From positions 8,802 to 72,801 of the forward strand of contig CAJFCJ010000055.1 of NCBI GenBank assembly GCA_904063045.1: a stretch of DNA of 64,000 bases, in the 5' to 3' direction. Positions 14,471 to 63,915 of the stretch are shown one piece after another; position 1 is the stretch's first letter; each line of letters opens with the position of its first letter. Source of the DNA: Dimorphilus gyrociliatus. Taxonomy: Eukaryota; Animalia; Annelida. Both the position numbers and the translations under genes were made by a program. The notes under the pieces were generated by a model. It saw nothing but the letters and a program-made list of their open reading frames with translations, made no database searches and was not told where the DNA came from.

Positions 14471-14522
14471 GATAATAGAGTCATTGTGACAAGTCCCAGA
14501 CCTTTTGTGGAAGCAAGGTCTT

Positions 14523-16680: not shown

Positions 16681-17004
16681 TGAAGAAAGTTTCAGCTCAA
16701 AAGGCTATGTGCCAATAATCATGTCATTTGGCCAAATAAGAAAGAAAAATCATAAATCAATAGTGATTTTTATAAAAAAAAAATATGTAAAAACTTACCT
16801 TAATGCTTTTTGAAAGAAATTTATATACAATTCCAAGTTTAATCTATAATTTAAAACTGAGAAAATATAAATAATAATCTTTCCTCATAATGAAAATCAA
16901 AATTTGAGGTGTGCCTATATACATGTCATTTACTTTATGCAATGATTCAATGTTTGTTTAGAGTCAAAAGGTGACCTTTGTAAGTCATTTCTCTAGTAGA
17001 AAAC

Positions 17005-17195
17005 CATCCAATATTTACAAAAGAAGGTAATATAGTCATTGTGACAAGTCCCAGACCTTTTGTTGAAGCAAGGTATTAAAAGGGTGGGATATCTGTGCAC
17101 TTGGCTATATGATATATCAATACTTAGACTTTATATATAAGGCTACATTAGAAAGACTTCTATTTCATACGAATTACAATGGTGCAACTATAGCC
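17005..17195 (+). mobile_element. Second copy of env 3' end, PPT and LTR family C start, interrupted by a MITE
   Basis: gtcattgtgacaagtcccagaccttttg..aaaagggtgggatatctgtgc duplicates 14480-14545; LTR sequence resumes after 17375. Confidence 0.8.
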
Positions 17196-25565: not shown

Positions 25566-25735
25566 TTTGGTAATTTGGCAACCTGCTATTACAAACTATC
25601 TACTCTGCTATTGAACTCTCATATTGTTACTTGCTTAAGTATTATTATTGAGAATAAACCGTTTTAATTTAAACATTTGTTTAAAGGTTCGAGTAGAACC
25701 AGTATTGTTATAACTTGCAAACGCATAGATTTTAT
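25566..25735 (+). repeat. Repeat family D copy
   Basis: Near-identical to the reverse complement of 26382-26550. Confidence 0.85.
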
Positions 25736-26381
25736 ATAGGATATATTTGCAGTCCTATTTACTCTTAGTGATATGTTTTGTAAAAACTTTAATTTTTACA
25801 TATTATTTGCCAATTTCAACAGAGTTGCTTCGCAATATGAAATTGAGATGCAAATTAATTATAGTAAAAAATTATTTGCAGGTATACACTAATAAAACCC
25901 TCAATGGACCTTACAAGCCATGTTTAACATGCTACTCTATTTAGTTTATTCAAAGATCCTCCAAAACAATACCTTCCTATGTTTATTTGCTTTTTATCTC
26001 ATCAAGAGAACCTACATTTAAAAAATATTGATAAAGATGTCTTTAAATCAATCTTTGATTTTAAACCAATGCATGAATGTCCAACTCAATACATTGATCC
26101 CTAATTGGTCATATATTTTCAGGCTAAGTAATAATTGATGCTCTATGTATAGTGTTTTCAATGTTAAGAAATAGGATAAATTTGAAGTATCTTGATGAAT
26201 TTAGCTTTTACTTTACTTCTTGCCTCGGCAAAGACATACTTCAAGCTTTTCTAAAGTGTAGTTCCAAAGATTTGCAATTTCTTCACAAACAGAGCAAAAC
26301 TTGGATGTCAATGAGAAATGTAAACAACTTGTTGGTAATTCTTTAAAATGAACACATTCCTAGTGTACTGCTCTTGCTGGC

Positions 26382-26580
26382 AAAATCTATGCATTTGCAA
26401 GTTATAACAATACTGGTTCTACTTGAACCTTTAAACAAACGTTTAAATTAAAATGCTTTATTCGCAATAGTAATACTTAAGCAAGTAACAATATGAGAGT
26501 TCAATAGCAGAGTAGATAGTTTGTAATAGCAGGTTGCCAAATTACCAAACTGTCTTCCAATGTTGAGGAGTAGATGGATG
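26382..26580 (-). repeat. Repeat family D copy
   Basis: Inverted relative to 25566-25735; preceded on its own strand by the purine run ggaagacag. Confidence 0.85.
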
Positions 26581-29207: not shown

Positions 29208-29415
29208 GGATTCGACAGAAAACGGCCCCAAAAGCATGGTTTTACCCCAACCCTAAACCATCCCTAATGTATCCCTAACCCTTTTTCATTACTCCTAACC
29301 CTTAGATGGGACCCCCTTCACTACAAATCAATAAATGCTTTCTTCCTCCTAACCATTTCTTAACCCAAAATGCTGCCTTCAAATATCCTTCTTGGGGCCG
29401 TTTTCTGTTGATCCC
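29208..29415 (-). mobile_element. MITE (related subfamily) with TIRs and perfect 9-bp TSD TTGTTTGAA
   Basis: TSD at 29199-29207 and 29416-29424; TIRs ggattcgacagaaaacggccccaa and ttggggccgttttctgttgatccc; internal ccctaa repeats. Confidence 0.88.
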
Positions 29416-29491
29416 TTGTTTGAAAGGTAATGTACCAGTTACATTTTGAGCACTTTCAGTATTTTCTATATTTAGTAATACAATGAAAAGC

Positions 29492-29692
29492 GGGGGCGAC
29501 AGAAAACGTCCACAAATGAGAAATTTCAAGACAAAAATTTGGATTGAGAAATGATTAGGCAGAAGATAACAGCAACTGATTTGTAGTTAGCAGGGTCTCC
29601 TTTAAGGATTAGGGGTAATGGAAAAGGTTAGGTACAGCTAAGGGCTGGGTTAGGGTAAAAGCACTGATTTGTGGATGTTTTCTGTCGCATCC
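29492..29692 (+). mobile_element. MITE with TTAGGG-like repeats (copy 2)
   Basis: Same TIRs and body as 17196-17374. Confidence 0.85.
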
Positions 29693-30369
29693 TTCAACAT
29701 GATTAAAAGAAACTATTGGTTTTGAGTACATTATGCTATCTTCTTTAAATGATGATCAAACATTCCGTTAAAACCATCTCCTCTTCTTCGATGGAAAAAA
29801 CATGTTTATTATTTAAAGTGACATTTATTAAATAAGATAAACTGGATTTGTCTACAAACACTAAGCATATTGAGTTCATAATGAAATACCCTAAAATTGC
29901 TCATATTATCCTTATAAGTGATATTTTTAACAAAAGAAAACATTTTCAAAAGAATTGTCATGATTTTGATTAGTTGAGAATAAAATTGAATTAAAAAATC
30001 TGAATATTAAAATGTTTGGCAATGCTCTCCTCTTACATTATCCTAACTACAACTTGTTAATGTTACCAAAGGTCAAACTTGAGTTTTGGACCAGTTCCAA
30101 GTTTTCATATTGAATGCTTGAAAACATATGTTATCAAATTTTTTACATCTTATGACAGAAACTGTCTGCATAAATATATCCAACCTCATTTCCACATGAA
30201 GAATGATATATAAAATGGAACAACATTTAAACTTTTCAATTGTGTAAAATTGTGTGCTAACCCTGATGCATATTTTATTTCATTTGTTCATAGTTTGACA
30301 TAAAATTTCATTTCTTTGTAAATATTTTTATAATCTGAATATATACTGGACAATGGATTGAAATGAAAC

Positions 30370-31600: not shown

Positions 31601-31856
31601 TATATACAATATTAGGTTTAGGGTTACAGTTACTTTTACTAATATTATGTAGTTTATTAGTTACTCACTTAATTCTTTGATTATCCATCTACTTTCAATG
31701 TGTTTGGAAATTCTGATCCCAAACATTAATAAATGGAAAATTATTGTTTTGATGTTTTCTCAAAATTTCTAATTCATTTGGCTTCCTATTATATAAACAA
31801 AACAAGGACAAACAACAAAGTTTGATGATGATAGCATCATCACAATTGAAAAGATT

Positions 31857-32055
31857 ATATCATATTTATGTAAATAAACACTTGTTGTTGTTGTCAACAT
31901 GTTTGTTATGTAACATCTTATCCTTTGCCTATAAAAGGGGTTGATTCTGGCAGTTCTGTACCATCTACCCTAGAGGCAACATCTACTTCAACACTTCTAC
32001 CATATAGTAAGTATCATTTATAAAATATCTACAAACTATAGTTCGTAAGTGTACA
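31857..32055 (-). repeat. 5' third of the Gypsy LTR (family B), inverted
   Basis: Reverse complement of 46253-46450; TATAAAAG on the plus strand at 31930 and GTAAGT at 32007. Confidence 0.9.
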
Positions 32056-36990: not shown

Positions 36991-37197
36991 GGGGCTGACA
37001 GAAAATGTCCCCAAGTGAGATTTTGGAAAGCAAGATTTTGGATTGAAAAATAGTTATCAGGAGTAAAGTACCTTTTGATTTGTAGTTAGGGTGGTTCCAT
37101 CTAAGGGTTAGGGGTAATCAAAAAGGTTAGAGAGAGACAAGGGCTAGGTTAGGGTTAGGGTTAAACAATGCATTTGGGGACATTTTCTGTTGTATCC
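36991..37197 (+). mobile_element. MITE with TTAGGG-like repeats, 9-bp TSD CTTCAAATC
   Basis: TSD at 36982-36990 and 37198-37206; TIRs ggggctgacagaaaatgtcccc and ggggacattttctgttgtatcc. Confidence 0.88.
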
Positions 37198-37367
37198 CTT
37201 CAAATCTCTATGAGAAGAAAATATTTTATAGACAATTTTTGATAGAAAATGTCACTTTCTACTTTCCAATGCATAAGCAAGTCTATACAAATTGAAAGAA
37301 AGTATAGTCTTATAAGCAAAATACTTTTGTGATAAAAAGAAAAAAATACTTGATTATTGTTGAAATT

Positions 37368-37568
37368 GGATATGACAGAAAATGTCCACAAATCAGTGCT
37401 TTTACCCTAACCCAGCCCTTAGCTGTACCAAACCTTTTCCATTAGCTCTAACCCTTAGAGGAGACCCTCCTAAGTACAAATCAGTTGCTGTTTTCTTCTG
37501 CCTAACCATTTCTCAATCCAAATTTTTGTCTTGAATTTTCTCATTTGTGGACATTTTCTGTTGACCCT
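37368..37568 (-). mobile_element. MITE with TTAGGG-like repeats, TSD GTTGA(A/C)ATT
   Basis: Flanks 37359-37367 and 37569-37577 match at 8/9; body is the reverse complement of 29492-29692. Confidence 0.88.
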
Positions 37569-38226
37569 GTTGACATTTATAGAAACAATAACCACAATGA
37601 GTTGAATTTTTTGCAATCAGAAAGCAAAGCTCTAGATAAATAAACCTCTCTTTTTGTGTTTATTTAATTAGGTAAGTGTGAATCATATGAATAAGAAATA
37701 GCAAATAATATCTGCCTGGTGCAGGGCTAGAATAAAAGAAAAATGTGGTTGGCTGCGAATGTATCTGTTAGGAAATCGGCAGTTTGAAAATTTGATTGAA
37801 TTTATTGCTACAGGGGCTCCGAGTTAGGATTAGGGAATATAAATAAAACAGATATTACACTCAACTTTGAATATGCTGAGGTAGGCAACACAGGAAAAAA
37901 CAACTACTTCAATTATACATGAAAAAACTATCATTTACTGATTGTAATCTAAAAACATACGATATATTTATATAGCCTCCAATGACCAATGCATCTCCAC
38001 ACATTAGTTTAGTAGCTGCTCTGAAAGAGAAAAATAAAAAAAAACAATTACTAAACTCTTTAAAATCATATTTTAAAAAGGAACAAAGAACATGGGACAT
38101 ATTAGACTGAGAAATGGGAAATTCTGGTGGGATTATTGTTGAAAGTTGATTCTACTCCATTTGAAGCAATTGAACATCATTTTCATTGTGTTCTTTGGCT
38201 GTTATATATGGTCACAAAGGTGCAGT

Positions 38227-38309
38227 GACATTTCGGCCCAGGACAGTTCAGCCCACTTTTGGACATTTTGGCCCATTTGGGACATTTTGGCCCAGGACAT
38301 TTTGGCCCA
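38227..38309. repeat. Five copies of GGACATTTTGGCCCA; orphan MULE-type terminus
   Basis: Units at about 38227, 38241, 38261, 38280 and 38295; no inverted partner was found in the window. Confidence 0.75.
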
Positions 38310-38824
38310 TTTTATGACTTTTTGAGTTAATTATGAATTAAATACAATAAATAAGAAAAAGCAAATCAATTTTAAAATTAATAAAAAATATAATAAGTAA
38401 TATAATATAGTAATTCGAGATATGTAAAATAATTATTATAAAATTCAAAATATTTCCAGAATAATGGATACCAGTTTTCCTTATTTCTGAAGTATATTTT
38501 ACATTGTTTTACAATTTCCTTTTCCTGTTTTGAGAAAAAGTAGAAAGCATATTTCTTTTCTTCATTTATCATAGAAGCTTCAATAGAAATTACAACATGA
38601 ATTTGAAAAACTGTTGGAAGTGTGGATTAAGATTTCATTGGACTCAAAGAAAATTCAGATGCAAGTTGTGCAGACATTTTTATCATACAAAGTGTTCAAA
38701 ATGTAAGTAAACTCTCTAACTTTCTCAGGTATAATGCTATATCATCAAATGTTTTATCAACAAAATAGATTGCAGGTGTTTACAATTCAAAATCATTTAT
38801 TAAATATTTCCTTGATATTTCAGA

Positions 38825-39130
38825 ATGAAAATAAGACTTCTGGAAATTGTTATTTTGCTTTCCTTAACTATTTCTTCATTAAACTGTGATATTTTTAAAC
38901 TAGCAGAAGAATTCAATAATTTACTTGACAACAAACTTGGCCTAAAATCATTTCAGGTACACAATTCATTTGTTCATACATTCATTAATTCAGGTTGTAA
39001 AATTATCATATTCAGAAATTTATTGATGACAAAAGCAAGGTGATCTATAAAAAGAGATTTCTAGATAATTCACATAGCCATTTTGTCATCCAAAAAGTTA
39101 TTATTAAAAATTTAATTAAAAGATTTATAG
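38825..39130 (+). CDS. First exons of a signal-peptide-bearing protein, possibly alpha2-delta/CACHD1-like
   Basis: MKIRLLEIVILLSLTISSLNC signal; DIFKLAEEFNNLLDNKLGLKSFQ|gt, then ttcag|KFIDDKSK..; family call is by resemblance only. Confidence 0.35.
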
Positions 39131-39147
39131 TATACTTATTTTTTTAA

Positions 39148-39354
39148 AGATGCAACAGAAAATGTCCACAAATGAGTGGTTTTACCCTAACCCTAACCCA
39201 GCCTTTAGCAGTACCTAACCTTTTGCATTAGCCCTAACCCTTAGAGGAGACCCTCCTAAGAACAAATCAGTGGCTGTTTTCTTCTGCCTAACCATTTCTC
39301 AATCCAAATTTTTGTTTTGAAATTTCTCATTTGTGGACATTTTCTGTTGACCCC
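39148..39354 (-). mobile_element. MITE with TTAGGG-like repeats
   Basis: Near-identical to 37368-37568; (ccctaa)2 core; TSD not evident. Confidence 0.85.
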
Positions 39355-39755
39355 CAGATACCCACCTTCTTATAGAACATTCACTCAGAGTTTCATCCCC
39401 AAAATAGCCCTTTAACTGTATATAAATTTTCATTTGAGAGACCTTCTCATGCACCAAAAATGCAATGATATTTCATTGAATGGAATGTGTGGACATGACA
39501 TGTGGTTGCTTACACCAAAATAAATTTGAAATGGCTTGACAGAATCGAATGAAAGTTTACACAGTGAAAGTTTACTAATTCACTAAGATTATTGGAAAGT
39601 ATCAATGTGATTAGTTTAGCTGTTTTAAAATTATAGCACAGAGCTTGAAATTTTTCCTAATATTTTGTATTTTGTTGTATCCTGATTGTACACTTATGAA
39701 CTATAATTTATAGATATTTTATAAATGATACTTACTATATGGTAGAAGTGAGTAT

Positions 39756-40800
39756 ATGCTGAAATTGGAAGAATATATGGAGAAAATAAAGAATTTGGGT
39801 GGAGCTGTTGATGGTGAATCCTTCATTGCAAAACATGTGCAGTCTGGTTCATTAACTCTTCCTGAAAACTCTTCTATGTATGGAAGTTCAAGTAGCCTCA
39901 AATTGCAATCTGGTAGTTCAAGTGAGTCAATGTCTCAAGCAAGGAATAGGGGACAGAGGACAACAGAACAGCTCATAATGAGAATCACTGAATTGGAACA
40001 TACCATGGCAAATTTACTTTTGGATGCTGGTGAAAGACCAAATACTACATTGTTGAAACCATATTCTGGAAGAGAGGACACCTGGAATTTTAAAAGGAAT
40101 TTCAGAACAGCTGCAGAAATAAGTTCATGGAATACTGAAGCAAAAAGAATACAAATGTTAAGAAAGTACACTGTAGATAAAGCTAGACTGTTTGTTGAAA
40201 GACTTCCTCCTGAAGCATCAGAAAAAGATATATGGGGAGCTTTAGACTTTGAGTTTAACCCTCCCCCTATTATCTATAAAAGAGATGTTGAAAGGTTAAA
40301 GCAATTAACTGGTGAAACTGTAACAAGTTTTGCTGGGAGAGCAAGTGATCTTTTTGAGAAATTCTTGCCTGGAAATGCAAATGATCAGCCTGCTGTGATT
40401 GAAAGGATAAGAGAAATACAGTTATTAAACACCTTGAGATCTGGCCTGAGAGCTGATATAGTCAACCATGTGGAACAACACAGGAATATTGACAATGCAA
40501 AACAGTATCTAAATTTGGCAAAAGAAGCTGAAGCATATCTTAGTACTCTATGAATAGAGGAAAAAGAGGAACAATATTGGAAGAAAAATGATTGGAAGAC
40601 TTATAATCCTCCACAACACAGACACAGTAATCCAGAGAATAGAGGTTACAATCCAAGATATGGTGAAACCATCATGGAAACAGGAGAGCTGAATCAAAGT
40701 CAACCCTCCACAGAATCAGTTTTGAGAAACCTGACAAACCATCAGATGGCGAAAATACAGCTGGAACAGTTGCAATATATCATGTGGGACAAGAAACAAA
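39756..40800 (+). pseudogene. gag: Gag (Ty3-type capsid, degenerate zinc knuckle)
   Basis: KPYSGREDTWNFKRNFRTAAEISSW..LKQLTGETVTSFAGRASDL (major-homology-like region); YHVGQE..HFRC knuckle remnant; frameshift near 40550. Confidence 0.8.
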
Positions 40801-43800
40801 GTACCATTTTCGATGTACTTCTCAAGTTAAGGGAAGAAATGACTTCATGATTAGATTTGTGAATCCAAAAGGGAGAGAAACTTTGGCTCTGTGTGATTCA
40901 GGTACTCTCATATCCTTCATTACAGAAAAGGAAATACAGCTGTTAGGTGATAAGATACAGATGGAATTACCCCCTGGGTCACTATGTTTTACAACAGCTG
41001 ATGGCACAAGACTAAACACACTTGGACACTGTAAATTGAATATTCAGTTTGCTGGTAGGATTCTGGAACAGGAATTAATTGTAGTAAAGGATCTGGATTT
41101 GTCAATTCTACTTGGATGTGATTTTCTGACAAAAAATGGTGCAAGATTGGACTTTGCAACAAAAACTGCATCCCTCCCCTTTTTCATACAGAATGGTAAA
41201 GATGCAAAAGAAGAATTACATGTGAAATCTTTTCATGGAGCTGGAGGAAGAACAGAAGAAAAGAAGAAAAAAAGAAGCAAGAAGAAATTTGCTGTTAGAA
41301 TGATCAGAAATGAAAAGAATTCAGACAAGGCAGTGGAATTAACCAGAATTGAAAAAGAAAGAAGAAAGTTGAAGAATCTATTGTTGAAGAATTTGAAGAG
41401 ATTATGGCTAAAGATGAAACAGATATTGGCACACCTGATGTACCACCTCTCTCAATTGATCTTTGTGAAGAAGCCACCCCATTCAAGCTAAGACCATACA
41501 GATTACATCCAGTGAAAATGGATGAATGTAAAAAGCAAGTTAATGACTTACTGAACAGTGGAATTATTAGAATAAGTAAAAGTGAATGGGCATCTCCTAT
41601 TCTGTTTGTACAAAAGAAAGAAGGAATGCAAAGACTTTGTATTGATTATAGAAAACTCAACAAACAGACTAAGAAAAATAGGTATCCACTCCCTCATCAA
41701 GAAGATTTATTTGATCAGCTAGGAGAAAATAAATATTTCTCTGTACTCAACCTCACAAGTGCTTATCACCACATCAAAATTAAAGAAGAAGATAGAGAGA
41801 AAACAGCATTTATAACACCATTTGGCCTCTTTGAGTTTAATAGAATGCCATTTAGGTTAGCAAATGCCCCACCTCACTTCAGCTATGTTATGGCAACATT
41901 TGCTTTAAATGGAATGGATAAATTCTGCCTCAATTATATGGATGATATTATCATATTTACCAACACTCTAGAGGAGCATAAAGTAGCTTTGACAAAAGTG
42001 CTGGAACAAATCAAGAGAAAAGATTTTAGAATCAAGCTGAGCAAATGTAACTTTCTTCAGGAATCAATTCAATTCCTTGGACACAGAATAAGTAAAGATG
42101 GAATTGCTACTGATGCAGAGAAAATTGCTAGGATCAAGGAAGCAAACAAACCTGTATTTGCAAATACATTACTCAGTTTTGTTGTGTTTTGTGGATATTA
42201 TAGAAGGTTTATAAAAGACTTTGCAAGAATTACCAAACCTCTACAAAATTTGATAAAGGAACATGGTAAAAACAGCAAACTCAACTGGACTAAGGAAGCA
42301 GAAGAAGCCTTTGATACCCTCAAGAGAGGGATGATAACACCTCCAATCCTACAGCTACCTGATTATAACAAACCTTTCTACCTTACCACTGATGCATCTG
42401 ACTTTGCAGTTGGAGCTATCTTAGAGCAAGAAACTGTTGGAGCTGATGGAAAGAAAACCAAGAGACCAGTTTCATTTGCATCAAAATTACTTATCAATTC
42501 ACAGCTCAAGTATGCTGCATATCAAAAAGAAGCTTTTGCTGTTTATTGGGCAACACAGAAGTTTTCACATTACCTAAGATACAAGAAGTTCTTCTTATAT
42601 ACTGACCACCAAAGTTTGGTTCAAACATTTGTTCAAAGAAAACTTAATTTGTGTACAGTAAAATGGGTAATGGCACTTATGGATATGGAATTTGAGATAA
42701 TATACATACCTGGTAGGAACAACAGAGCTGACTGGATATCCAGAATTGGTGAAGGAAAACCCCAAATAAGCTTTAAAGATTTATTGAAGAAGGAGTTATT
42801 GGAAGAGAAGGCTGAAGAGTCTGCAACACAACTTATGCAAAGAAAAGACATAATTTCATGTAATTTCCTAGATGCAGAAGAGTTTGAGGATATAGATAGT
42901 AATGATGAAAATGAGAATGGCAATGAAAATGAAGCTGCTGAAATCACAATGAATTTTCCACAAGAACAAGCTAAAGATTTGGAACTGATGAAAGTAGTAG
43001 ATAAATTAGAAGGTTTAGAAATTTCAAATGCAGAAATGGGTGAATATGCTGATCATTTGGAAAAGATGCTGATAAGAGATGACTTGGTAAGCTATTTGAG
43101 CAGATGCATGGGCATCCCTTATTCAGACATTATGGCATTGATACCACTATACAAACTTGGGAATATGCATTCTGGCACCCAAAATTGAAAACTAATATTA
43201 AAAATCATCTACATCAGTGTGAAGTATGTGAACAACTAAGAGCACCAAGCCATAGGCATGAATTGATAGAAACACCACATCCTGTTGAACCTCTACAAAG
43301 AATTGACATGGATATTATTGGACCTCTTAATGGACATAATACTTTCAAGCACATTTTGGTTATTGTAGATCACATGCCAAGATTTACAAACCTGTATCCT
43401 CTTAAGGGACAAACTTCAGAAGAGATACTAAAACACTTGTTTTATGACTATTTTCCTAATTTTGGTTTACCAGAGGAAGTGTTAACTGATCAAGGAAGAA
43501 ACTTCCTAAGTGAGACATTTGTTGAGCTTGTCACATCCCTGGGTGTAAGGAAAATCAAAACTACAGCCTTTCATAGCCAAAGCAATGGCATAGTAGAAAG
43601 AAGAAACTTGGAAGTAAGAAGAGCACTACATAAGTTACTGGTAATAGAAGGGTATACTAATTGGGTGAAGCAGTTACCAATTATTTAAAGCTGCCTCAAC
43701 CAAATTCCAGTTGGAAGTACAGGAAAAACCCCTCATGAATTACTTTATGGACTTAGAAATCGAAACATGTTGGATACATTGCTAACAATTCCAAGAATTG

Positions 43801-44130
43801 AGCCAACAACCAAATTCTTATTTGATAGAAAGCAAGACATGGACAAATTAAGGACAACTGCATTATGTAAATCAGTAATAAAGAAGAAGGAATACAGGGA
43901 TAGAATTAACAAAACCCTGACCAGAAAACCTCCAACCTATAGTATTGATGATTGGGTACATATTAGGAGAGAAGATATTCACAGAGGTATGGAAAGGATA
44001 CCAAGCTTTAAATGGAATGGACCATATAAGATAACAGCTGCAGATGCAACCAAATGTTTGTATGAAGTGGAATTGGAAGATGGCAAAAGAAAATATTATC
44101 ATGCAACAAGATTAAGATTGGCTAATAACC
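40784..44130 (+). pseudogene. pol: Pol: aspartic protease, reverse transcriptase, RNase H, integrase (frameshifts near 41370 and 43100; stop at 43686-43688)
   Basis: ALCDSGTLISFI; SEWASPILFVQKK..RLCIDYRKLN; YMDDIIIF; TTDASDFAVGA, YTDHQSL, RADWISR; HHCC H..H..CEVC; DMD, TDQGRNF, NGIVER; GPY motif at 44019-44027. Confidence 0.95.
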
Positions 44131-44207
44131 AAGCAAGAGATGAGACAGTTAATCATGTTGGTACAGAAAATAGAAGAAAACCATCAAGGTTATTTCCAAT
44201 TAGAGAG

Positions 44208-46232
44208 ATAATACCTCTAATAATAATCATGATCATATTTATGCTACTACCATTGACAATGGCAAACCAATTCACAACTGGTGCTAACATCACTTTAGAA
44301 TTTGTACTTCCTATTCAATACTGCAATGGACAGCAACTACAGCAAGCATTTGATTTAGCAGATCAACCTGAATGTCAAGTATACAACCAACCTGTGACCA
44401 AAATATTAGCCAATGTCTATGAAATAAACACAGCTGATTTAGAGGTTGAAGCAGTAAAATGCATGGTGAGGAAGAGAGAGAACTTCTACACTTATTATTT
44501 TTTTGGTTCAAAGAAGCACAGAGTTGAAAAATTCATTGTTACATTGTCAGAAGAAGAATGCAGAAAGATGTATCAAGAGAAGAAAGCTTACTCTGGGCAG
44601 AAGCTTTATAACAAAGGAAATATTTGGACTTATAATGAAAGGAAAGGAACAGCCTATAAATACCCATCAACAACTTTAGTTATAGAATATACTACAATTA
44701 TACAAGTTGGAAAAGCATACTGGTTACCTTATCAAAACTATGTAACAACAGATCTTGATTTTGTTGAAGATTGTCCAGTTCAACAAAGATTTTGCAGAAC
44801 TATAAATTCAGTTATTATCCTCCAATTGTTAAAAGATAATAGAATCATGGGACAAGAATCACCATGGAGAGTGATTTCAAGAAGGATATCATGTATAAAG
44901 TTTGCAGGATATTACTCCTGTCCTGAATATACTATTATGGATAAATACTATAAAGATAGTTTCATAGAAGGATTTGGAGGGCCAGGTACAAGAGTTCTGG
45001 TTCCTATCAAAGAAAACCAACTTCTGACAACAGATTTATCAACATCTGGGTACCAAGATGATGAAATGCTAAAGAATGCAGTATTCAAGCTGGTGTCAGA
45101 AGAGGAAGTAGTTTATTGAAAAAGTACCAGTCAAAGAGTTTAATGATAAGGAATGCTCTTCAGAAAGACCACGAAAGTATACCAACATTTAGAGATTGGT
45201 ATAGGGAAGGAGATAAAACATATCATATGATGATTAAAATCCCTGGTCATGCTGTAGTCAGAACATACCAATTAAAGCAATCTATAGCACCAGATGTATG
45301 GAGTATACAAAACACATATATTGGAAAAATGTTAAAGAAAGTAACCTTGCCCATTGCAAAGGAGTGAAGAAAAGACCAGTACAAAGTTACCCACAAATTT
45401 GTTGAAGAAAAATTGTTGCCAAAAACAGGTGTTTGGTTTCAAGGACCTCAAGGGAAGCAGTTTAAGTTGACTAAAAGAAAATTAGGATATCTCCTACTAG
45501 AAAGAATTGCAAAATCAGAAAAAGAAAAAGAGATGAAAATAAAAATCATCAAAGTGGAACAAGGGCAGCATTTCTAAAATCAGTTGATAAAAATTTCATC
45601 AACTTACAAGATACCTTTAACCAGCTCTCAAGAATGTTATGTAGAGCATTTGTGCAGAGGAAATTATTATCTACTAAGTCCTATCACACGTCAGTTACCA
45701 ACAGTTTTATCTGAAGAGAAAGGAACACATAGCACTTGGCTGGGAGACCTCGCAACAATTAATTGTTGTACACAACACAAATCTATTCAGATCATATGTG
45801 ACTTGAACATTATTGTGAAAGATGGTAAATGCTCAAAGCAACTATTGGCCAAATATAAGGAGTTAATATTCTCAGTGGAGCCCATAACCCATCAATTGCG
45901 TGATAGCTTAAAAGATATAATATATGGAATAACATGAACAAATCTTCAGGTAAAGAATCTTTGGAAGCCAGAGTAATATGAACAAATAAGCTTGATCAAT
46001 ATTCGACAATTTGAAACAATTGGATATGATAATAATTAGGATAATGTTGGAAAGAAACATAAAATATAAACAAAAAAAAAAAAAAAAAAAAAAAAAATGT
46101 AACACAAAGAATACTAAACAGATTCAGAAAAACAAATGACATCAAATCCATTGAGGAAGGCCAACCCTTAAGAGTTGTCATCAGCAGGAAAGGTCAAGTT
46201 ATTATTGCCAATGTTGAACCATCAGTGGAATG
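44208..46232 (+). pseudogene. env: Env-like class III fusion glycoprotein, in frame with integrase; 3' half frameshifted and TM eroded
   Basis: Internal signal IIPLIIIMIIFMLLPLTMA; NIT sequon; KC..YYFFGSKKHR..TLSEEEC..AYKYPSTT..DCPVQQRFCRTINS parallels the rhabdovirus G fusion domain; ECYVEH..YLLSPITRQL..KGT resembles the chuvirus G CYxELPV..FLxPxT..GT motif. Confidence 0.78.
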
Positions 46233-46252
46233 ATGCTTTAAGGAGAGAAGTC

Positions 46253-46827
46253 TGTACGCTTACAAACTATAGTTTATAGATATTTTATAAATGATACTTA
46301 CTATATGATAGAGGTGTTGAAGTAGATGCTACCTCTAGGGTAGATGGTACCAAACTGCCAGAATCAACCCCTTTTATAGGCAAAGGATAAGATGTTACAT
46401 AACAAACATGTTGACAACAACAACAAGTGTTTATTTACATAAATATGATGTAAGAATTGACCCTTGATGGGTAACCTATGCAAAGTTGTTGTTGTTTACA
46501 TCACTATTGCATAATATGATAACCCTTGACCCTGTTTGTTGTGAACAATCCTTATCTGGGGTTAGACCCTTGTTGTTGACAGCCAAGGCATAAACAACTG
46601 ATAAGGAATTGTATAAAAGCAGGGCATAGGCAGTAACAGGCATTCAGTCCTGAATCAACTCCCTTAGTGAACAGGTCTAGTATTACTTTAGAATACAGTT
46701 ATATTATTCTTATGGTTTGGTTCTATATTCATCCTTCATCAATTCTACATCTCTCTCCTAAGTGGCTTACTCCTGGTTCAGTTCTATTTGGACCAGTACT
46801 TACCTACAACCTCAGCAGGAAAGTACA
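46253..46827 (+). repeat. 3' LTR (family B), 575 bp, TGTAC...GTACA
   Basis: Follows PPT aaggagagaag; sense TATAAAAG at 46612 with TCAGT at 46644; antisense TATAAAAG at 46378-46371. Confidence 0.82.
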
Positions 46828-47097: not shown

Positions 47098-48021
47098 TTA
47101 TCTTAAATATTTTCTACAAGTAATCTTTTTAAAGAGATTAGTATAAAGTTTTTTTGTTTGTTGTCTTATAGATGATTTAGTATAGCCATGAATAAGTGGA
47201 TTAATTGTTGAATTTGACAGAAAAATTGTTGTAAGCATTGAAAGAGAAAATTTATAAAGTGCTGACTGCATCATAATCTTTGTAGTTTCCATTTTATTAT
47301 AATTTATAATAGTTGTTGTAGTTGATAGAATCCATAAAATAGTATTAAATATTAAAAGGCAGGTTAAAGCCGTTATGCTACTTCCTCCTGACATTGTACT
47401 AATGGCATTTGATGCATTAGAAATTGCTTTTTTGTGTTTCCATACTGCTCTTAATATAGGAATATATAAAACTATACCAGTTATAGCATTTGGTGAAACA
47501 GTACTAAATGTCCAAAAATACAAATAGGAAGGTGGAAGGAGATCTAAAATATTACATATAACAGTAACATTTTCTTTAAAGTTAGTCTGGTAAGTATTCC
47601 AACCAATAAGAGGAAATATACAAATGACAATATTGAACAGCCACATACCAGCAAGTATGATAACTGCTCTCCTTATTGTCCATATTTTATGAAATTTTAA
47701 AGGATTTACAACTGCAATAAACTTTTCAAATGTAATTAGAGTCAATGTAAAAGATGATACAGCAATAATTAATAATACTAGTTGAGTTAGAAAAAGACAA
47801 CTGTAAAAACTTGCTGGTTTATCAGTAAGATAAAAAAAGCATAAAATACTTATTGAATATAAAATATCAGTAAAAGTCAATGCAGTAACACCAAAATTCT
47901 CTAATTTCCAAATATCTCTATTTATTGTACGAACAGCAATCAAATTTCCATTTAAAATTAGACCAAGAATCTGATTGCAACTCATAAATATCATTACAAA
48001 TGTTTGATAGAAATAATCCAT
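47098..48021 (-). CDS. Intronless class A (rhodopsin-like) GPCR, 307 aa
   Basis: Seven hydrophobic segments; GNLI, LTFTD, CLF..ITFEKFIAVVNPLKF, PLIGWN, C, NSTINPLIHG. Confidence 0.92.
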   Translation of the reverse strand: MDYFYQTFVMIFMSCNQILGLILNGNLIAVRTINRDIWKLENFGVTALTFTDILYSISILCFFYLTDKPASFYSCLFLTQLVLLIIAVSSFTLTLITFEKFIAVVNPLKFHKIWTIRRAVIILAGMWLFNIVICIFPLIGWNTYQTNFKENVTVICNILDLLPPSYLYFWTFSTVSPNAITGIVLYIPILRAVWKHKKAISNASNAISTMSGGSSITALTCLLIFNTILWILSTTTTIINYNKMETTKIMMQSALYKFSLSMLTTIFLSNSTINPLIHGYTKSSIRQQTKKLYTNLFKKITCRKYLR

Positions 48022-49943: not shown

Positions 49944-52900
49944 TTACTGTCTCAAATTTCTCATTTCAACTTTATTTTTGATCAATTGTTGAAAATCACT
50001 TAATGAATATATCAATGGATTTAAAATTGAATTTAGTGGTAAAAATAATCCAATTATTATTGAGTAGAGTGTATTATTCAATTCAAAATTTGGTAGTATG
50101 GTTAATAAGCCTAAACACGAAATTGGTAGCCAACACATGAAATTGGTGATAATTATAAGTAGAGCAGCTGTAAAGATTTTATTCTTCTTTTCGGAATTAT
50201 TTGATTGTCTCTTTGACCTTTTTACAATTCTACTAATATCAACATACAATATTACAATTATACTACTGATTAACATTGGAAAAATGCTAAAGAGAATCAA
50301 ATCCGAAATCCAGCCATTACTCTTTTCATTTCTTATATAAATATTTAAGCAGATTGGTGTTATTTCAAATCTATTCTACAAAATAAATTAAAATTGACAA
50401 TTTTCAATTTTGACTGTCTGCCAAAAATTTTACATTACGAAGCAAGATTGGTATTATTGCTAGACAACTGCAAATAAAATGGACGCCAAAGCTACTGCAA
50501 TACTTTTTGATTTAATAAATGTTTTTGTAAAGAGATACTTAATTGTTTGCTGCCTTTCTAATGTTACAAGCAGTAGAGACACGGACGATTCAAGAAGAGA
50601 TAGTGTCATTACTATTTCAATAGCTTGACAGAAAGTACTATTGCGCCATCTGTTGTCATTTTCTACATAGATTTCTCTCAAGTTTAAATCTACAATAGCA
50701 ATTGCGAGAAAATAGAATGAAGTTAAACTATCGCTTAAGATTAATGATAATCTATAGGTGTTTAATGGACGCTTCTTTAAAGTTAATACAAATGATAAAC
50801 AATTTCCCATTAATCCAAAGATACCAAAAATCCAAAATAAAAATCTAATGAAATTAATACCAAGAATATTTGAACATGTAAAAAATATTGATGTAGAAGG
50901 TTGACAATAGATGTCGCCACCAATAAATTTCCATATATGACAACAGAGGAAAAATGATTCGCTAAATATTTTCTTTATTGAATACAAATTTTGAGCAAAT
51001 GGAAGAAAATATTTTGCAGGCAGTTTTGTTTCTTTTAAATGAAGTTCCAAAATGGCTGAAATATTTTTAAAAAATTGACGTTTTATACTAAATATTTTGC
51101 AATTGGAAATTTTTAATATTTGTAAATTTGGAAGATATTTCGAAGGAAGGTCAAGGACATTTAAATTATTTCCAGATATATCTAAATATCTTAGAAAAGG
51201 GCATGCAATTCTTTTTATATATTTAATAATATCAATGTTGTTGTAGGAGAGGTCAAGGTATTGAAGGAGTAGATTTACATTGATATCATCATTTTGACTA
51301 AGACTTCCACCTCTTCCTCTTGAAATGATTAAAAAAATAAGATTGGGAAATATATTTAAATTTCTTAATGGAAAATTTTCCAGATTTTCTACTATTTCTA
51401 AATATCTCAATTCTTTCATAGTCTTGGTATTATTTATTATAATATCACCAATTATTCTTATCTTCTTTATCTGTTCATTCAAATTTAAAATATTCGAAAT
51501 TTTTCTATCATTTTCAACTGCAATTTTGCAGTTCAATTCGAACATTGACAATTGACTTGTCATTTCACAAAGGGGATTATGAGTAAAAGTTGTTTTTATG
51601 CAAAAAATTTCATCGCTACCGTACTGACAGTCAAAGATTTCATTACAAACTTTTGTTAATAATATAAATTTAGGTTGTTTTTTGCATTTGAAAAATCCTC
51701 TAGGCATAAAAGATTCTATGTGAGAAGTAATAGATAGATAGATTGATTGAATGATCACGTGACACATCAACTACCACAATTTAATTCATCCTCATTGTTT
51801 AAGCAATGATTAATACCATCGCAAACAAGTTCAATTTGAATACAGAATTTTCTCTTCTGACATAAATATTCACCTGGTTGGCAGTTTTCTCTTTGACAAT
51901 CAACCAATTCTCCATTTAAAACTTGACTATTACTTTCCAAATGACCCATGGAATTATAATTTATTGAACAATTTCCAAGTTTAATCTCTTTAAAACAATT
52001 TTCATATTTCTCATTTTCAACTGTTTCGCAATCGTCATTATATTTGCATAAATTATGTTTTAATATACAAGTTTTAGAGCAGTGATATTGAAAGTCATTT
52101 CTACATTCTAACAGAAAAATAATTTTGAATTTTTAAATGTTTGAATTTAATTGTTTACTATTTTTAAAAAATTTGTCAATTGAATTTTCATTGCCACATA
52201 TTTCATCTGACCAATCAGCGCAGTTTCTTTCAGAATCACAAACATATTTGTCCTTTATGCATTGACGATTTTTACATTCTCTTGAAAGAATTGGAATACA
52301 TCATATCAACATTTCTCATTTTTATTGGTATTGTTTTTTACCTTTCATTGCTTGAATTACAAACATTTGTTTCTTTTTTTTGAATAAATTTAAGAAAACA
52401 TCTGTTAATGTTACAAAAAATAGAATGTAGGCTTATATACCGCAATGAATTTCATCAAATCCATTTGGACAATCTTGAATAAAATCACAAACTAATGTAT
52501 AACTAATTGATATATTAGTATTGTATGGAAAACAGTAAAATTGTTGCTGTTGTTGCTGCTGATTAGTATTATCATTTTTGCATATTTCATCAGATTCATC
52601 TTCGCCGAATGGACAATCCATTTCTCCATTACAAATATATAAAATATTTATGTATATTTTGCCTTTTAAACAATAAAAACTGTTTAAAGGAACAGTTATA
52701 TTCCAATCTTGGTATTTGAAGGTCAAATCCAATTTTGAGGTGAAATTTATTGTATTATCATCTGAAATTATTAAAATATGATAATTTAGAGGAATTTTCG
52801 GGTAAGTTTAATACAAGAATCTCCTACTAATTATTTTTTGGCAGGTATAGATAGTACTCAATATTTCTGAACATTTTCTCTTTGATATTTCCCATACTTT

Positions 52901-55840: not shown

Positions 55841-56761
55841 TTAATTGACTTTTTTGCAAGTGAACTTTTTCAAGAGATTTAAATAGAATTTCTTAGTTTG
55901 ATGTCTTATTGATGCTTTTGTGTAGCCATGAACTAATGGATTGATTGTTGAATTTGAAACAACAATTGCTCTAAATGAATCCCTGAGTAATACAAAATCC
56001 GACTCGGAGAGAGAGAATGTTTGCTGTCTTCTATGATAAGTTATTATTGTGATAAGAGTAGGTATAATCCATAAAAAACAATTGAATATTATCAAAAATG
56101 TTAAAACTCTTATATTTCTTCCTTCATTTTTCAAGTTTTCTGCATTTGTTACATCAGAAATTGCTTTTCTTTGTTTTCTTATTGCTCTGAGAATTGGAAT
56201 AAATAATAATAAACTGGTAATAGCATTTGGTAAAACAGTGCTAAATGACCAAAAATACATATAAGCAAATGAAAAAATATTATTAGTATTACAATAGAAA
56301 GCGGATTTTTGTTTTAAAGCAATTTCATATTTGTTCCAACCCAAAACCGGAAATGAACATATAATAAAAGAGATAGACCATATAAAAGAAAGTAGGATAA
56401 ATGCATTCCTAGTTGTCCAGAGTCTGTGGAATTTTAAAGGCTTTACAACAGCCAAATATTTTTCTAATGTTATTAAAGTTAATGTGAAAGATGATATTGA
56501 AATTATTAGAAAAATTGATTGATTAAAAATGAGGCAACTGTAAAATTTTGTCTGTTTTTCATGAAGGAGAAAGAAACATAATAGGCTTATTGAATATAAA
56601 ATATCTGTAAATGTTAGTGCAGTTACACCAAAATTATGTAATTTCCATAAATCTTTGTTAATTATACCAATAATAATTAAATTGCTGTTTAAGCATAATC
56701 CAATAACTTGATTTATACATGAAACTAATAATATTAACTGTTTGGCAGAGATCATTTTCAT
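55841..56761 (-). CDS. Intronless class A GPCR, 306 aa, paralog of 47098-48021
   Basis: Shares NFGVTALTFTDILYSIS, SSFTLTLIT(F/L)EK, PNAIT, SNSTINPL(I/V)HGYTK with the first copy. Confidence 0.92.
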   Translation of the reverse strand: MKMISAKQLILLVSCINQVIGLCLNSNLIIIGIINKDLWKLHNFGVTALTFTDILYSISLLCFFLLHEKQTKFYSCLIFNQSIFLIISISSFTLTLITLEKYLAVVKPLKFHRLWTTRNAFILLSFIWSISFIICSFPVLGWNKYEIALKQKSAFYCNTNNIFSFAYMYFWSFSTVLPNAITSLLLFIPILRAIRKQRKAISDVTNAENLKNEGRNIRVLTFLIIFNCFLWIIPTLITIITYHRRQQTFSLSESDFVLLRDSFRAIVVSNSTINPLVHGYTKASIRHQTKKFYLNLLKKFTCKKVN

Positions 56762-58942: not shown

Positions 58943-61900
58943 TCAGCATTCTTTGAAAATAATTTCTTTAAATTTTTTTGTAATATATTGAAAAACTTGA
59001 TGATCTTCTGGTAAAACAGTTGGATCAAGTTTTACAGCATTTAAAAATTCATTTAATGTTGTAATAAAAATATTTAATACTAAATATGTCATTACTGATG
59101 CATATGAAATTATATAAATTTTTCCCATAAATCCTCCATTATCAGATAATATATCAAAATCCAAATGTCCAAAAATGGTTACAATTAATGCATAGCAAGT
59201 AAATTTGAAATTTTTATAATTGTTTATATATCTACCAAAAATAATGTAACCCCAACAAGCATAGCCAATAAAAACAATACAAGTGCAAAATCCAATTGCT
59301 ATTAAATCTTTGCCTGATTTTTTTTAAAGTATTTACAAGAATTGAAATTGTTCTTGATATTTTTAGTAAACTCAGTACATGAAGTTCGCCAAAAAATCCA
59401 CTAAATGCTGCAAACATCATAAAATAGCTGTGAATGTTAAAGAGTGTTGATAAATTTATATATTCATTTCTAGAATTCATAACATTCTCAACAACTTTTA
59501 CACCAATTATTGTCCTCCATATATATAGTAGAACAGCACAAAGAAAACATACCAATGAGATTATTAGAAGAATACCAGGGAGTTTTGAATATTTCATAAA
59601 AGAATAAAAGCATAAAATAACTAATATAAGCCACACAAATATAGATATAATTTCAAATATAAGAGAAATTAATCCACCAAACCCAGTATATCTATAAAGT
59701 TGTAGTGAATCACTCCGAACAGTTACAATCACACCACCAACTGGTTTAAGTTCAAATTTCCATGTTGCCTGTGAAACAATTTCTTGATTCATAATTGTTA
59801 AATCTAATTGAACAAAACGGGTTTGTCGATCCAGCCAACCATATTTTTTCAAATGGTGTATAATTTCCATTGCATTATTTGCTTCTTGACCTTATGAAAT
59901 TGAATAACCTTTATGTTTTTCAGAATAAATGAAAGCATCATGAGTTGTATTCAAGTTAAACTCATTCCAATAAGTTGAAAAATTCATTTTAAGCTCATCA
60001 TTAATTGAATAATAACCAAAACAACTATGATTTAAAAAATAGTTTTTCAAATTTGTAGCTGCAATTTGGCAGTTTTGTCTTTTGACTCTCCTTTGAAAGA
60101 GTCTAACAACTGAAAATCTCATATGGTTCATTTCTCTTGTATGTTTAAGATCATACTTTGATAAATTCCTATCGTTATAATAAGTTTTTGGATAAATTTC
60201 TGGTATGGCATAGGTTACCATCCAATTCCAAAATTTTTCATAATTATTTACTTTGTTAATGTTTGGTATTGTATTGCAAATTGATTTATTCTGATAATAA
60301 GCCATAGGATTTTGATTGTTGTAGCATATGAACAGAGCAAATATTAAATAGACTACATGTAAAAAGATATTCTTTATCATATGATGCATTTTATCTTTCA
60401 GAATTTTGTCATTTTTTAAAGTATGAGTCTTATCCAATGCTTTCTTCAATCTCTCATGAATATTCAATTCTGTTAAAAATATTTTGAAATTATTTTAAAG
60501 TGTTTTTGTATCAATTCACTTACCTAAAGGAATGTGAGATAAATTTTCCATTTTTAATTTTTTCATATCTTTAATGTTTTGTTCATATTCAGTAAGATTT
60601 GTGTCTTTTTTAAACAAAATTGTTACTAAAAATGCAACAAGTATTACTTTGATTGGCTGAACAAAGATAATACTCTGTACAAATGACAAAATAAATGACA
60701 TCAACCATTTTAATGATTTCTCTTTTCCCCATTGGATTGAATATAAAATTGTAAAGAATGCTGCTGTTAATGCTGCAAGAAATGCTATAATCCATCCCAA
60801 TGGAATGGTGTACTTCCGCCATCTTTTTGAATTGAACAGCAATGTTATCAGAAGCAAACCAGGGAATACAACAATACTACTGGCCAAACCTACATATAGT
60901 TCATACATTGTGAATGTAACTGGTCCCAATGTTAATCCAAGTTTAGCATCAGTCTCTTTAGAATTTCTATAGAACATACAACTTGCAATCATTGATAAGA
61001 ATAGAGCAACAAAGCAAACTGATAATCTTTGTAGTCTTGTAAATTTTGATTTTGTTCTTCTTGTCCCAACAGATAACCATAAATGATCATCCATCAATTT
61101 TGTTTTAATTCCCTTTAAAAATTGTTCATCCATATCTGGTTTAGTTGCAACAAGAACTCTTTCTATTTGACAATCTAAATGTGTAGGAGATAGCCACTGA
61201 TCACAATCAAAATGATACCAAGAATTTTTTATAGATTTATCAATAATAATTATTCTTGATAAGAACCAAGGATCATATTCTTTTAATTCTAAGTTGATAT
61301 TCTCAAGAGATATTTTTATACATATAATTGATCCAATACTATTAGAAGTTGTCATTATAAATGATCTAGTTGATCCAGCTTCAAAAGAAACTACACTTTC
61401 TGAAATAAGACTTCGATTTTCTTATTGGATTTGGTTCCATAGCATGCCAAGTTTACTCTGGAATTTGTTCCACCATCTTTCTTATTTCCAGTGTAAACAT
61501 GTATAACATATTCATATTTATCATCTTTATGATTGTCCAATAGTGGTAATGGTGTCCACAGTAATCTATCCCTTTTGTCTAATCTTTTTTACTAGTAATG
61601 CAAAGGGAATGAAAAGAGCAAACAATGAACAAACTGTTCCAAATACAGCAGCATTGTCTGCTAATTTACTTGCAAAATCATCAAATACTGTTTCAAAATT
61701 AATGAGATTTGGTGCTAAATCTAATCCAGCTCCCAAACTTCCAAATAGATTACTTGTAAATTTTGCTTTTGATACTGTTGTCTCTTTATCAATTGAATTT
61801 CAAATGAAACAATATGATATAATAATTCCAATTCAATAAAACGTTAAAGACATAGTTAATTGATTGATAAATTGTTTCTTATTCTTTTTTTTACCATCTA

Positions 61901-62961: not shown

Positions 62962-63915
62962 GAATACGACAGAAGTCGCCCAGGGCAGAAGTCGCCCAGG
63001 ACAGAAGTCGCCCAGACATTGATAGAAGTCGCCCAGAGCTGTGACAGAAGTCGCCCAGAAGTGTGATAGAAGTCACCCAGGACTATGACAGAAGTCGCCC
63101 AGAAGTGTACTAGAAGTTTACAGTATGCTTAATAAAATGCAAAATATATGAAAATAATTTATGAAGTAGTTTGTATTTATTATTTGTAATCTCTGAGTGA
63201 TAATGAAAGAAATTGTTTTACCAGTTTTTTTTTGTAGAGTAATGTTTTACCACTTGATTTGTTGTGAAAATTGAATTGTTAGCTATTCGAATTAAGTGAT
63301 TTTCTGCATTGTAATCCTTCAAAAGTAACAATTGTTTTGATAAAAATATTAGTCTCTTTAAAATCATGTATATATCTTACAATTTTTTTTAATTCTCATG
63401 ATCTTTGACATAAGAGGTATTTGAAAGAAATTTATCAACATGGCAAAATTCTGCTTTGAATGTAGAAACAAATTTAATAAATTAAATGAAATGCATAAGA
63501 TTTTTAGTTTAAAACTCAATACTGTACTTTGTATTGTGATTGTGGGAATTTTCTGCTGTACTGATCCAAATAGAACCTCAAGTTTGTGCACAAGTTTAAG
63601 CAAATAAATGATATTTATGTGAAACCTTCAACAGAATGCCAGTATTTTATTTTAATTCATCACTATTTAGTTATTATTAAATGATGCATTCTATATTTAT
63701 TAATACTTATTATATATTTCAATTGTCAGAAATCAATAGAAACAAAGAACAAACACATTATGTCTTCTACAGTTCTAGGCGACTTCTGTCATAGTCCTGG
63801 GCGACTTCTATCACAGTTCTGGGCGACTTCTGTCACAGCTCTGGGCGACTTCTATCAATTTCTGGGCGACTTCTGTCCTGGGCGACTTCTGCCCTGGGCG
63901 ACTTCTGTTGTTCCC
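62962..63915. mobile_element. Non-autonomous MULE-type element, 954 bp, with repeat-array TIRs and 9-bp TSD TGTATTATC
   Basis: TSD at 62953-62961 and 63916-63924; multiple (GAC)AGAAGTCGCCCAG copies at 62968-63105 and inverted CTGGGCGACTTCT copies at 63775-63907; carries an LTR-A end fragment at 63523-63600. Confidence 0.9.

Follow-up and report, generated by a model that had tools for sequence, protein, structure and literature searches.

A 64,000-nt stretch of the Dimorphilus gyrociliatus genome (the window) carries, at positions 39687-46827, what is very probably a decayed member of a multicopy family of Ty3/gypsy LTR retrotransposons. Its env gene encodes a predicted class III fusogen, which likely belongs with the HSV/gB-type Env proteins of errantiviruses. 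In the predicted structure of Env, a PH domain carries an elongated fusion domain with two loops; a long helix and a beta domain come next. The env gene was most likely inherited within the errantiviruses over a long time, and not recently taken from a virus.

Limits of the element and its LTRs

The limits given for the element in an earlier note on this DNA, 39687 and 46827, coincide with TG...CA LTR ends. The 3' LTR (46253-46827, forward strand, as are all parts of the element) is complete at 575 nt, with TG...CA termini. It is immediately preceded by a purine-rich tract, and loose ends accumulate past 46827 in runs X2 and X4. Only the first 64-78 nt of the 5' LTR remain (39687-39760), a remnant of which 64 nt align at 91% identity, with 6 differences, to the beginning of the 3' LTR; one contig of run X2 places the LTR end upstream of 39747. 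The rest of the 5' LTR and the primer-binding site region are absent, and the copy is not a standard intact one. No tRNA gene was found in the window. A partial solo LTR of the same family lies on the reverse strand at 31855-32055 (95% identity to the 3' LTR over 201 nt).

gag and pol

The ORF map places gag, likely encoding the capsid protein, at 39756-40553, where it ends at a stop that is followed by a 98-codon open stretch in the same frame. The Gag sequence had no Pfam match and weakly matched the N-terminus of the retroelement polyprotein P0084 (E 1.4e-5).

Pfam searches bore out the proposed Ty3/gypsy backbone, with matches to an aspartyl protease, RVT_1, two RNase H models, an integrase zinc finger and rve in the gypsy order PR-RT-RNase H-IN across 40667-43688; no BEL/Pao-specific model was among the listed matches. 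The protease piece (40667-41491) includes a DSG motif near 40892 and matched RVP_2 with 27.6 bits (cut-off 20.3). The reverse transcriptase and RNase H region (41353-43188; RVT_1 E 8.5e-30, RT_RNaseH_2 E 8.9e-30), with YMDD at 41935, is not in frame with either the protease or the integrase piece, and its best RT matches are gypsy-type polyproteins that are ~50% identical. The integrase, consisting of zinc finger, core and C-terminal tail (43083-44189; rve E 5.7e-10, Integrase_H2C2 E 4.4e-9), is interrupted by an in-frame stop at 43686-43688, and its tail continues in frame into env (ORF 43689-45119). No Pfam chromodomain model matched 43689-44190 at E values up to 10. Given several stops and frame changes, gag, pol and env are not uninterrupted, and the element fails the inclusion filter applied to intact errantiviruses (PMC13524379).

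Organisation and decay of env

The region 44190-44264 encodes a signal peptide or signal anchor (Kyte-Doolittle mean 2.79 for 19 residues from 44208) with a basic stretch ahead of it; the peptide corresponds to helix 7-24 of the AlphaFold model. The N-terminal half of Env (44265-45119), predicted from the model and its class III matches to be a PH-like domain into which an elongated fusion domain is inserted, has two aromatic loops encoded near 44493 and 44652, and eight of its cysteines are common to the window Env and the homologs P0121 and P0122. The motifs reported for this half were found where they had been placed: KC at 44457, YYFFGSKKHR at 44493, TLSEEEC at 44541, AYKYPSTT at 44652 and DCPVQQRFC at 44769. 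Alignment with P0122 gave a score of 287 and a maximum of 66 in 200 shuffles, a likeness that exceeds chance.

A glycoprotein of about 680 codons had been proposed. From the signal peptide onwards, 687 codons precede the 3' LTR, but they do not form one ORF: the longest open stretch stops at 45119 and the remainder is scattered in fragments among three or more frames. The broken, lysine-rich middle region (45065-45574), which is covered by run X1 contigs, is longer than that of the homologs and unlike it, the scores of 27-35 against P0122 and P0123 being in the shuffle range. The C-terminal half, recognised by frame matching in pieces at 45574-45937 with a frame break between about 45655 and 45668, includes a predicted central trimerisation helix and then a beta region with the conserved motif VEPITH at 45875; it scored 102 and 107 (shuffle maxima 54 and 51).

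The 3' end of env (45938-46252), which contains a 26-nt A run (46072-46097), is decayed as judged by hydropathy scans and sequence. No transmembrane segment was found by hydropathy scans between 45600 and the LTR, and no furin-type R-x-K/R-R site occurs in any frame of 45000-45700. An env tail encoded at 46099-46230 was considered and rejected, as it does not align to the tail of the sister relic described below. The window copy is dead: its 5' LTR is reduced to ~70 nt, neither pol nor env is intact and the membrane anchor is gone.

The chuvirus-like motif reported for the later part of Env proved to be partly off-frame. Between 45571 and 45665, the homologs match a different frame, which scored 57 and 44, values reached by none of 1000 shuffles, whereas the frame giving ECYVEH (45632) scored like shuffles (443/1000 and 655/1000). 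The YLLSPITRQL portion aligns where the predicted central helix ends, ~70 codons upstream of VEPITH. The chuvirus/Jingchuvirales G model PF24664 was not among the listed Pfam matches of Env or its homologs.

Predicted fold of Env

The model of the N-terminal half supports the proposal of a class III fusogen with two aromatic fusion loops, its top 11 fold matches all being class III. The best of 48,161 chains was HSV-1 gB (Z 8.9, 207 aligned, rmsd 7.4), followed by Chandipura G and HCMV gB (both Z 8.3), with the first unrelated chain at 4.2 and no cellular protein ranking near the class III matches. A homolog model gave the same ranking, and with both models herpes gB and rhabdovirus G were tied within 1 Z unit. 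Herpes gB made up 35 of the 37 PDB rows among the Foldseek matches listed. No F-type or Gc-type fusogen was listed in any fold search, which alone does not exclude one; class III is preferred because the positive match decides, not the absence of rivals. By sequence, the Env protein and profile had no match in the PDB at E values up to 10.

The modelling used an alignment of five sequences, and one of five AlphaFold models was confident, with a pLDDT of 71 overall and of 72-94 in blocks within residues 71-270 (45-53 for the other models). In the confident model, strands 85-103 and 106-116 form a long hairpin, and residues 154-159 a second loop. The C-terminal half of P0122 folded poorly (mean pLDDT 49, about 30 in the helix region), a long helix at 345-373 being predicted with low confidence; hence, the assignment of domains III-V rests on low-confidence prediction.

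The short, rhabdovirus-sized fusion domain ascribed to Env was supported. The rhabdovirus fusion domain model Rhabdo_glycop_FD (PF00974; cut-off 22) matched P0122 with 25.6 bits, P0121 with 13.8 and the window Env with 12.9, and had no match in P0123 or P0124. It was the sole class III Pfam match, the gB and Monjiviricetes models giving none. The nearest Atlas clusters to P0123 were Monjiviricetes_fusion (0.96, below the reliable level) and then rhabdovirus G (0.94); the window Env had no usable Atlas match. The best BFVD matches were glycoproteins of Keturi virus, Beihai rhabdo-like virus 3, a nyavirus and a xinmovirus.

These data bear on the origin suggested in the earlier note, in which a gypsy lineage, independently of the gB-type errantiviruses, captured the G gene of a rhabdo-, nyami- or chuvirus-like negative-strand RNA virus. 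The PF00974 match of P0122 above its cut-off (25.6 vs 22), the negative-strand RNA virus glycoproteins that head the viral-library matches, and the spacing of the first two fusion-domain cysteines (33 residues, as in the VSV numbering given in the earlier note) all agree with such a capture. However, the viral structural matches are 8-16% identical to Env, gB and rhabdovirus G are tied, and errantivirus envelopes look closer by eye (see below). Moreover, the short fusion domain and the loop motifs recur in Env proteins of errantiviruses from tunicates, bryozoans, nematodes, water fleas and tardigrades in the portion of the catalogued sequences covered, and none of 549 pattern matches among IMG/VR viral contigs was confirmed to encode a relative of Env. 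Capture from an RNA virus is accordingly considered improbable.

The rhabdovirus G proteins of VSV, Chandipura and rabies viruses (PF00974) have a short fusion domain with two loops set into a PH domain, as predicted here, but rhabdovirus and other Mononegavirales G proteins share only 9-16% identity with the window Env, and PF24833 and PF24834 did not match. The loop-flanking cysteine pair of the VSV and sigmavirus rows is missing in the window Env and also in the rabies row. Chuvirus (Jingchuvirales) G has the class III fold that is predicted for Env. Mosquito BEL/Pao elements named Anakin reportedly carry a chuvirus-like env; their backbone differs from the gypsy backbone found here, and in the BEL Env rows the first loop is longer than, and different from, that of the window Env.

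Homologs, other copies and derivatives

A profile search recovered P0121-P0124 as the only four env carriers in 124 proteins, and the same env was present on none of 120 pol homologs. Word-index searches found the N-terminal half of Env in none of 1397 candidates among longer proteins and, with alignment A2, in one of 4801, which was P0123 itself. Metagenome contig scans for relatives of Env were negative (0/177 and 0/65). Proteins that share the eight cysteines and both fusion loops are 26-46% identical.

The element family is multicopy and has an env-deleted derivative. Run X1 contains many divergent copies, with 155 contigs on 2.3 kb, 38 of which are less than 90% alike. Its depth over env, about 790-2600 per bin where a flank contig has 75, may point to tens of copies, though it gives no copy number. 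In runs X4 and X5, an env-deleted form is assembled in which ~44632 is joined to 46109, the middle of env having little or no cover; a similar joint is present in X1.

A rearranged relic of a sister family with inverted repeats at both ends occupies 13125-14725 of the window, where it adjoins other repeats. It consists of an inverted fusion-domain fragment (13289-13504, reverse strand) and the C-terminal half of env (13500-14470, forward strand), which keeps the tail and the membrane anchor at 14225 (hydropathy 2.43); P0123 retains the anchor too. These pieces are 53% and 55% identical in protein sequence to the corresponding pieces of the main Env.

Alternatively, the glycoprotein might derive from a host gene, or from an unrelated endogenous viral fragment, inserted into the window copy alone. 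No exact 4-6 bp target-site duplication was found between the flanks of the element, so that the window copy may be recombinant. Against a chance insert, integrase and env share a reading frame, the window contains another env relic that has diverged, and no cellular protein approaches the class III fold matches. Contigs of other copies cross the integrase-env junction, which largely refutes this explanation, and it is regarded as highly improbable.

Another alternative is that Env is a passenger or acts only intracellularly, the element spreading as an ordinary retrotransposon from which env is being lost. The env-deleted copies and the broken state of both env copies in the window are in line with this. 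On the other hand, retention of the eight cysteines and both loops at 26-46% identity points to long selection on the fold, and deleted non-autonomous derivatives are expected beside functional copies. A passenger role seems rather unlikely; it is compatible with an errantivirus-type Env, and one does not exclude the other.

Relationship to known errantiviruses

The view that class III env on a gypsy backbone is unknown outside Tas and Pao elements was not borne out. Class III (HSV/gB-type) env genes are catalogued on gypsy elements of cnidarians, ctenophores, tunicates, bryozoans, flatworms, nematodes, arthropods and the annelid Dimorphilus (Chary & Hayashi, eLife 2026, PMC13524379), and the pairing of gypsy pol with a class III env is not novel. 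In Dimorphilus gyrociliatus, the Dingle family (Dinophilidae Gypsy-like elements) was described in 2020 (PMC7854359); like the window element, it has env 3' of the integrase, with HSV-1 and CMV gB as the best structural matches. The part of Supplementary file 1 of PMC13524379 covered here lists Annelida_Polychaeta_Dgyr_errantivirus_1 as ENV_HSV with 7 copies. That element spans ~9.3 kb and has LTRs of ~630 nt and a chromodomain, as compared with the 575-nt LTR and no chromodomain match in the window element. In the annelid and mollusc rows of that part, 29 of 30 elements are F-type and one is class III (PMC13524379), and class III env thus seems rare in these groups.

The HSV/gB-type errantiviruses, chiefly C2/C3 (ascidian Clep, Amen and Atur), have the same gag-pol-env order as the window element. 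Their Env proteins have a class III ectodomain with two hydrophobic fusion loops, as predicted here, and, in the sequences covered, the same C-x10-YFFG...C and second-loop motifs as judged by eye. Their ectodomain lies between a signal peptide and a membrane anchor; the window copy has the former, while the anchor is kept in the sister relic and P0123. An ascidian C3 Env agreed by eye with the window Env in 9 of 22 residues of the first loop and 5 of 9 of the second, where VSV G agreed in 4 and 2, respectively; on these sequences the ascidian Env proteins look closer to the window Env than VSV G does. Three of the eight parts of the PMC13524379 sequence sheet contained no annelid or mollusc Env, and the Dimorphilus Env was absent from that file as covered. 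In seven supplements of the same paper, HYFFG occurs four times and the other four motifs are absent.

The rhabdovirus-sized fusion domain, the long lysine-rich extra region and the in-frame fusion to integrase could also mark this env family as a class III lineage of its own, closer to the G proteins of Mononegavirales than to gB. In the material covered, neither the cysteine pattern after the fusion domain nor the long lysine-rich middle was matched to a named configuration of the errantivirus Env proteins. Fused POL-ENV frames and extra domains also occur among the errantiviruses, according to those labels and comments of PMC13524379 that were covered. A separate lineage is thought unlikely. 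If true, it would mean that gypsy elements and negative-strand RNA viruses have exchanged a gene, the retroelement possibly being the donor, and the published HSV/gB-type class would split in two.

If Env is of the errantivirus type, the window element is a further damaged example that adds little to a pairing published for many phyla and one annelid. A second family, accompanied by a sister relic and by a derivative lacking most of env, nevertheless widens the sample of an env type that seems rare in annelids and molluscs, and its short fusion domain, rhabdovirus-like in Pfam, makes it a useful taxon for class III relationships among errantiviruses, rhabdoviruses, chuviruses and herpesviruses.

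By analogy with known class III proteins and Drosophila gypsy, Env of a working element would be synthesised together with Pol or downstream of it, released by cleavage at the signal peptide and trimerised in the membrane around budding Gag particles. Its two aromatic loops would insert into the membrane of a neighbouring cell, and the protein would fold back and fuse the membranes, which may carry the element from somatic cells into the germline. The window copy is incapable of these steps because its 5' LTR is largely gone, its pol is no longer open and its membrane anchor is missing.

Dimorphilus gyrociliatus has MULE transposons and locally duplicated immune genes; the window likewise contains FLYWCH/MULE relics and a NACHT-LRR gene.

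Structure of the gypsy element

The Ty3/gypsy element at 39687-46827 has a GC content of 35%, compared with 29% across the AT-rich window. Its 3' LTR is complete (575 nt, TG...CA termini), and 64-78 nt of the 5' LTR are left, with 6 differences from the 3' LTR in 64. A partial solo LTR, inverted and 95% alike, is located at 31855-32055. No exact target-site duplication was found around the element. Following gag (39756-40553), protease, RT-RNase H and integrase were identified by Pfam in gypsy order, spread over different frames and with stops present. A stop codon in integrase (43686-43688) precedes a 476-codon frame reaching 45119, in which the integrase tail is followed by a basic stretch and then a hydrophobic 19-mer (44208), with the N-terminal half of env coming last. 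The gene order, an in-frame env, a signal peptide and the breaks are all seen in this copy, which is incapable of acting.

The strongly hydrophobic 19-mer starts 5' of the first methionine in the 476-codon frame. This suggests that env may have been translated from a start further upstream, as part of a polyprotein or via a spliced RNA. Elements labelled POL-ENV or GAG-POL-ENV, together with remarks about additional domains, show that fused frames and inserts occur in the covered part of a published errantivirus survey (PMC13524379).

Conservation and layout of env

Comparison with other proteins indicates that env is a genuine gene. A search through all 1.84 billion representatives yielded four homologs at E <=0.001, P0121, P0122, P0123 and P0124 (46%, 30%, 28% and 25% identity, respectively), all singletons without genomic context. 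The N-terminal half scored 287 against P0122 (shuffle maximum 66), and the C-terminal piece gave scores of 102 and 107 (shuffle maxima 54 and 51). The spacing of eight cysteines is the same in the window env, P0121 and P0122. In the homologs, the fusion module is followed by a linker, a long helix and a beta region with the conserved motif VEPITH, and P0123 has a membrane anchor near residue 465, after the beta region. The env helix is encoded in another frame than ECYVEH, which the earlier note had read as a chuvirus-like env motif; that reading is not supported.

The middle region comprises about 190 codons in the window env versus roughly 25-60 in the homologs, to which it shows no similarity. 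No membrane anchor was found before the 3' LTR. In a rearranged relic of a sister env-bearing element at 13125-14725 (13.1-14.7 kb), a piece of the fusion domain lies inverted, directly next to the C-terminal half of env with its anchor and tail, and inverted repeats stand on either side. Its anchor is retained 152 codons past the counterpart of VEPITH, and this spacing, applied to the main element, would run beyond the 3' LTR start. Related repeats lie at 15745-15977 and 17000-17193.

Predicted fold of the fusion module

AlphaFold2 on a five-sequence alignment gave a best model with mean pLDDT 71 (45-53 for the remaining four), in which the N-terminal half forms a long hairpin with YYFFG at the tip and a second aromatic loop. 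When this model was compared with 48,161 representative chains, rows 1-11 were all class III fusogens, including HSV-1 gB (Z 8.9), Chandipura G (8.3), HCMV gB (8.3 and 8.0), MHV68 gB (7.0), Bourbon (6.6), Thogoto (6.1), GP64 (5.2) and rabies (5.1 and 4.5); small PH-type domains followed at Z <=4.2. The P0122 model, poor past residue 268 (mean pLDDT 49), gave the same ranking. Thus, it is well supported by modelling that domains I-II are of class III, as the earlier note had proposed, with the support lying at class level and not with one nearest viral family.

Other comparisons divide between families. With Foldseek, the PDB yielded 96 matches at E <=0.001, gB accounting for 35/37 among the matches listed. 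Glycoproteins of negative-strand RNA viruses, 8-16% identical, stood at the top of 184 BFVD matches. The Pfam rhabdovirus fusion domain scored 12.9 bits with the window env and 25.6 with P0122 (cut-off 22). In Atlas, Monjiviricetes_fusion clusters ranked top for P0123 (0.96) and rhabdovirus G second (0.94), recognition being low. That env is a distinct lineage nearer to Mononegavirales G is considered improbable.

Relation to published elements

Chary and Hayashi described 1512 env-carrying gypsy elements from most animal phyla with F-type or HSV/gB-type env, and in the part covered favour an ancient origin over recent capture (PMC13524379). Annelid elements are F-type in 14 of the first 15 of 74 rows, the remaining one being a Dimorphilus gyrociliatus element with HSV-type env in 7 copies; all 15 mollusc elements among 15 of 46 rows are F-type (PMC13524379). 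The Dimorphilus genome paper, in the part covered, names this HSV-type family Dingle, with env modelled on CMV and HSV-1 gB (PMC7854359). MULE relics and an NLR-like gene in the window are compatible with such a host. In having no chromodomain and another LTR length, the window element differs from Annelida_Polychaeta_Dgyr_errantivirus_1, and hence is probably not that element.

The loop motifs called rhabdo-like in the earlier note are present, but they also occur in ascidian errantivirus envs of C3, an HSV/gB-type group. Compared by eye, one of these C3 envs shares 9/22 residues with the window env in the first loop and 5/9 in the second, versus 4/22 and 2/9 for VSV G (PMC13524379). Related short fusion domains are seen in bryozoan, nematode, water-flea and tardigrade env rows of the part covered (PMC13524379). 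No publication in the literature searched, with supplements covered in part, names a rhabdovirus-G-type env on gypsy as a class of its own. The element is a decayed errantivirus-like copy, and its combination of gypsy and class III env is already known; both the observation and the interpretation of the earlier note stand in part.

Other copies of the family

The env region is present in five sequencing runs from two studies, as assembled contigs that give neither copy number nor expression. One contig crosses the LTR-flank junction with no difference from the window, so that one of the runs may stem from the same source as the window. Contigs also cross the integrase-env junction. In X1, 155 contigs fall on 44100-46400, 38 of them <90% alike; thus, several diverged copies carry env. 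The diverged X1 copies do not have all breaks of the window copy. A derivative with a joint at 44632-46109, lacking most of env, was found in X1, X4 and X5; in the smaller runs X4 and X5, the assemblies have this form. This suggests an amplified non-autonomous subfamily, and the existence of the derivative indicates that copies were able to spread without env.

A functional env in the lineage is suggested by how long its cysteines and loops have been conserved. By analogy with known class III proteins and with gypsy of Drosophila, the signal would be cleaved to free env with its predicted class III fusion module, env would trimerise, and enveloped Gag particles would bud. The loops would then insert and fold-back drive fusion, and spread from soma to germline may have followed.

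Other features of the window

The window genes are of animal type with few introns. An NLR-like gene with NACHT (Pfam E 7.5e-15) and long leucine-rich repeats occupies three long ORFs at 5074-11391 (minus). An LDLa-LRR-7TM receptor gene almost without introns, GRL101-like, lies at 49944-52132 (minus). Two intronless rhodopsin-class GPCR paralogs (47098-48021 and 55841-56761, both minus) are 71-79% alike at the DNA level in repeated stretches. Pieces of a polycystin-1-like gene (PLAT, Polycystin_dom and PKD_channel by Pfam) are found at 59232-61355 (minus). Broken FLYWCH/MULE-type transposase genes occur at 146-1096 (the one covered by the Pfam run), 3289-4155 and 19605-21484. MITE-like inverted repeats occur at 62966-63911, 25566-26549 and 36991-39354. 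Two of the pairs measure 149-168 nt with a distance of 648 nt in each, and 22-nt subterminal repeats occur in one of them. A further repeat, high in copy number and containing TTAGGG-like units, is present at 17221, 29251-29701, 37016-37567, 39149-39354 and 58126.
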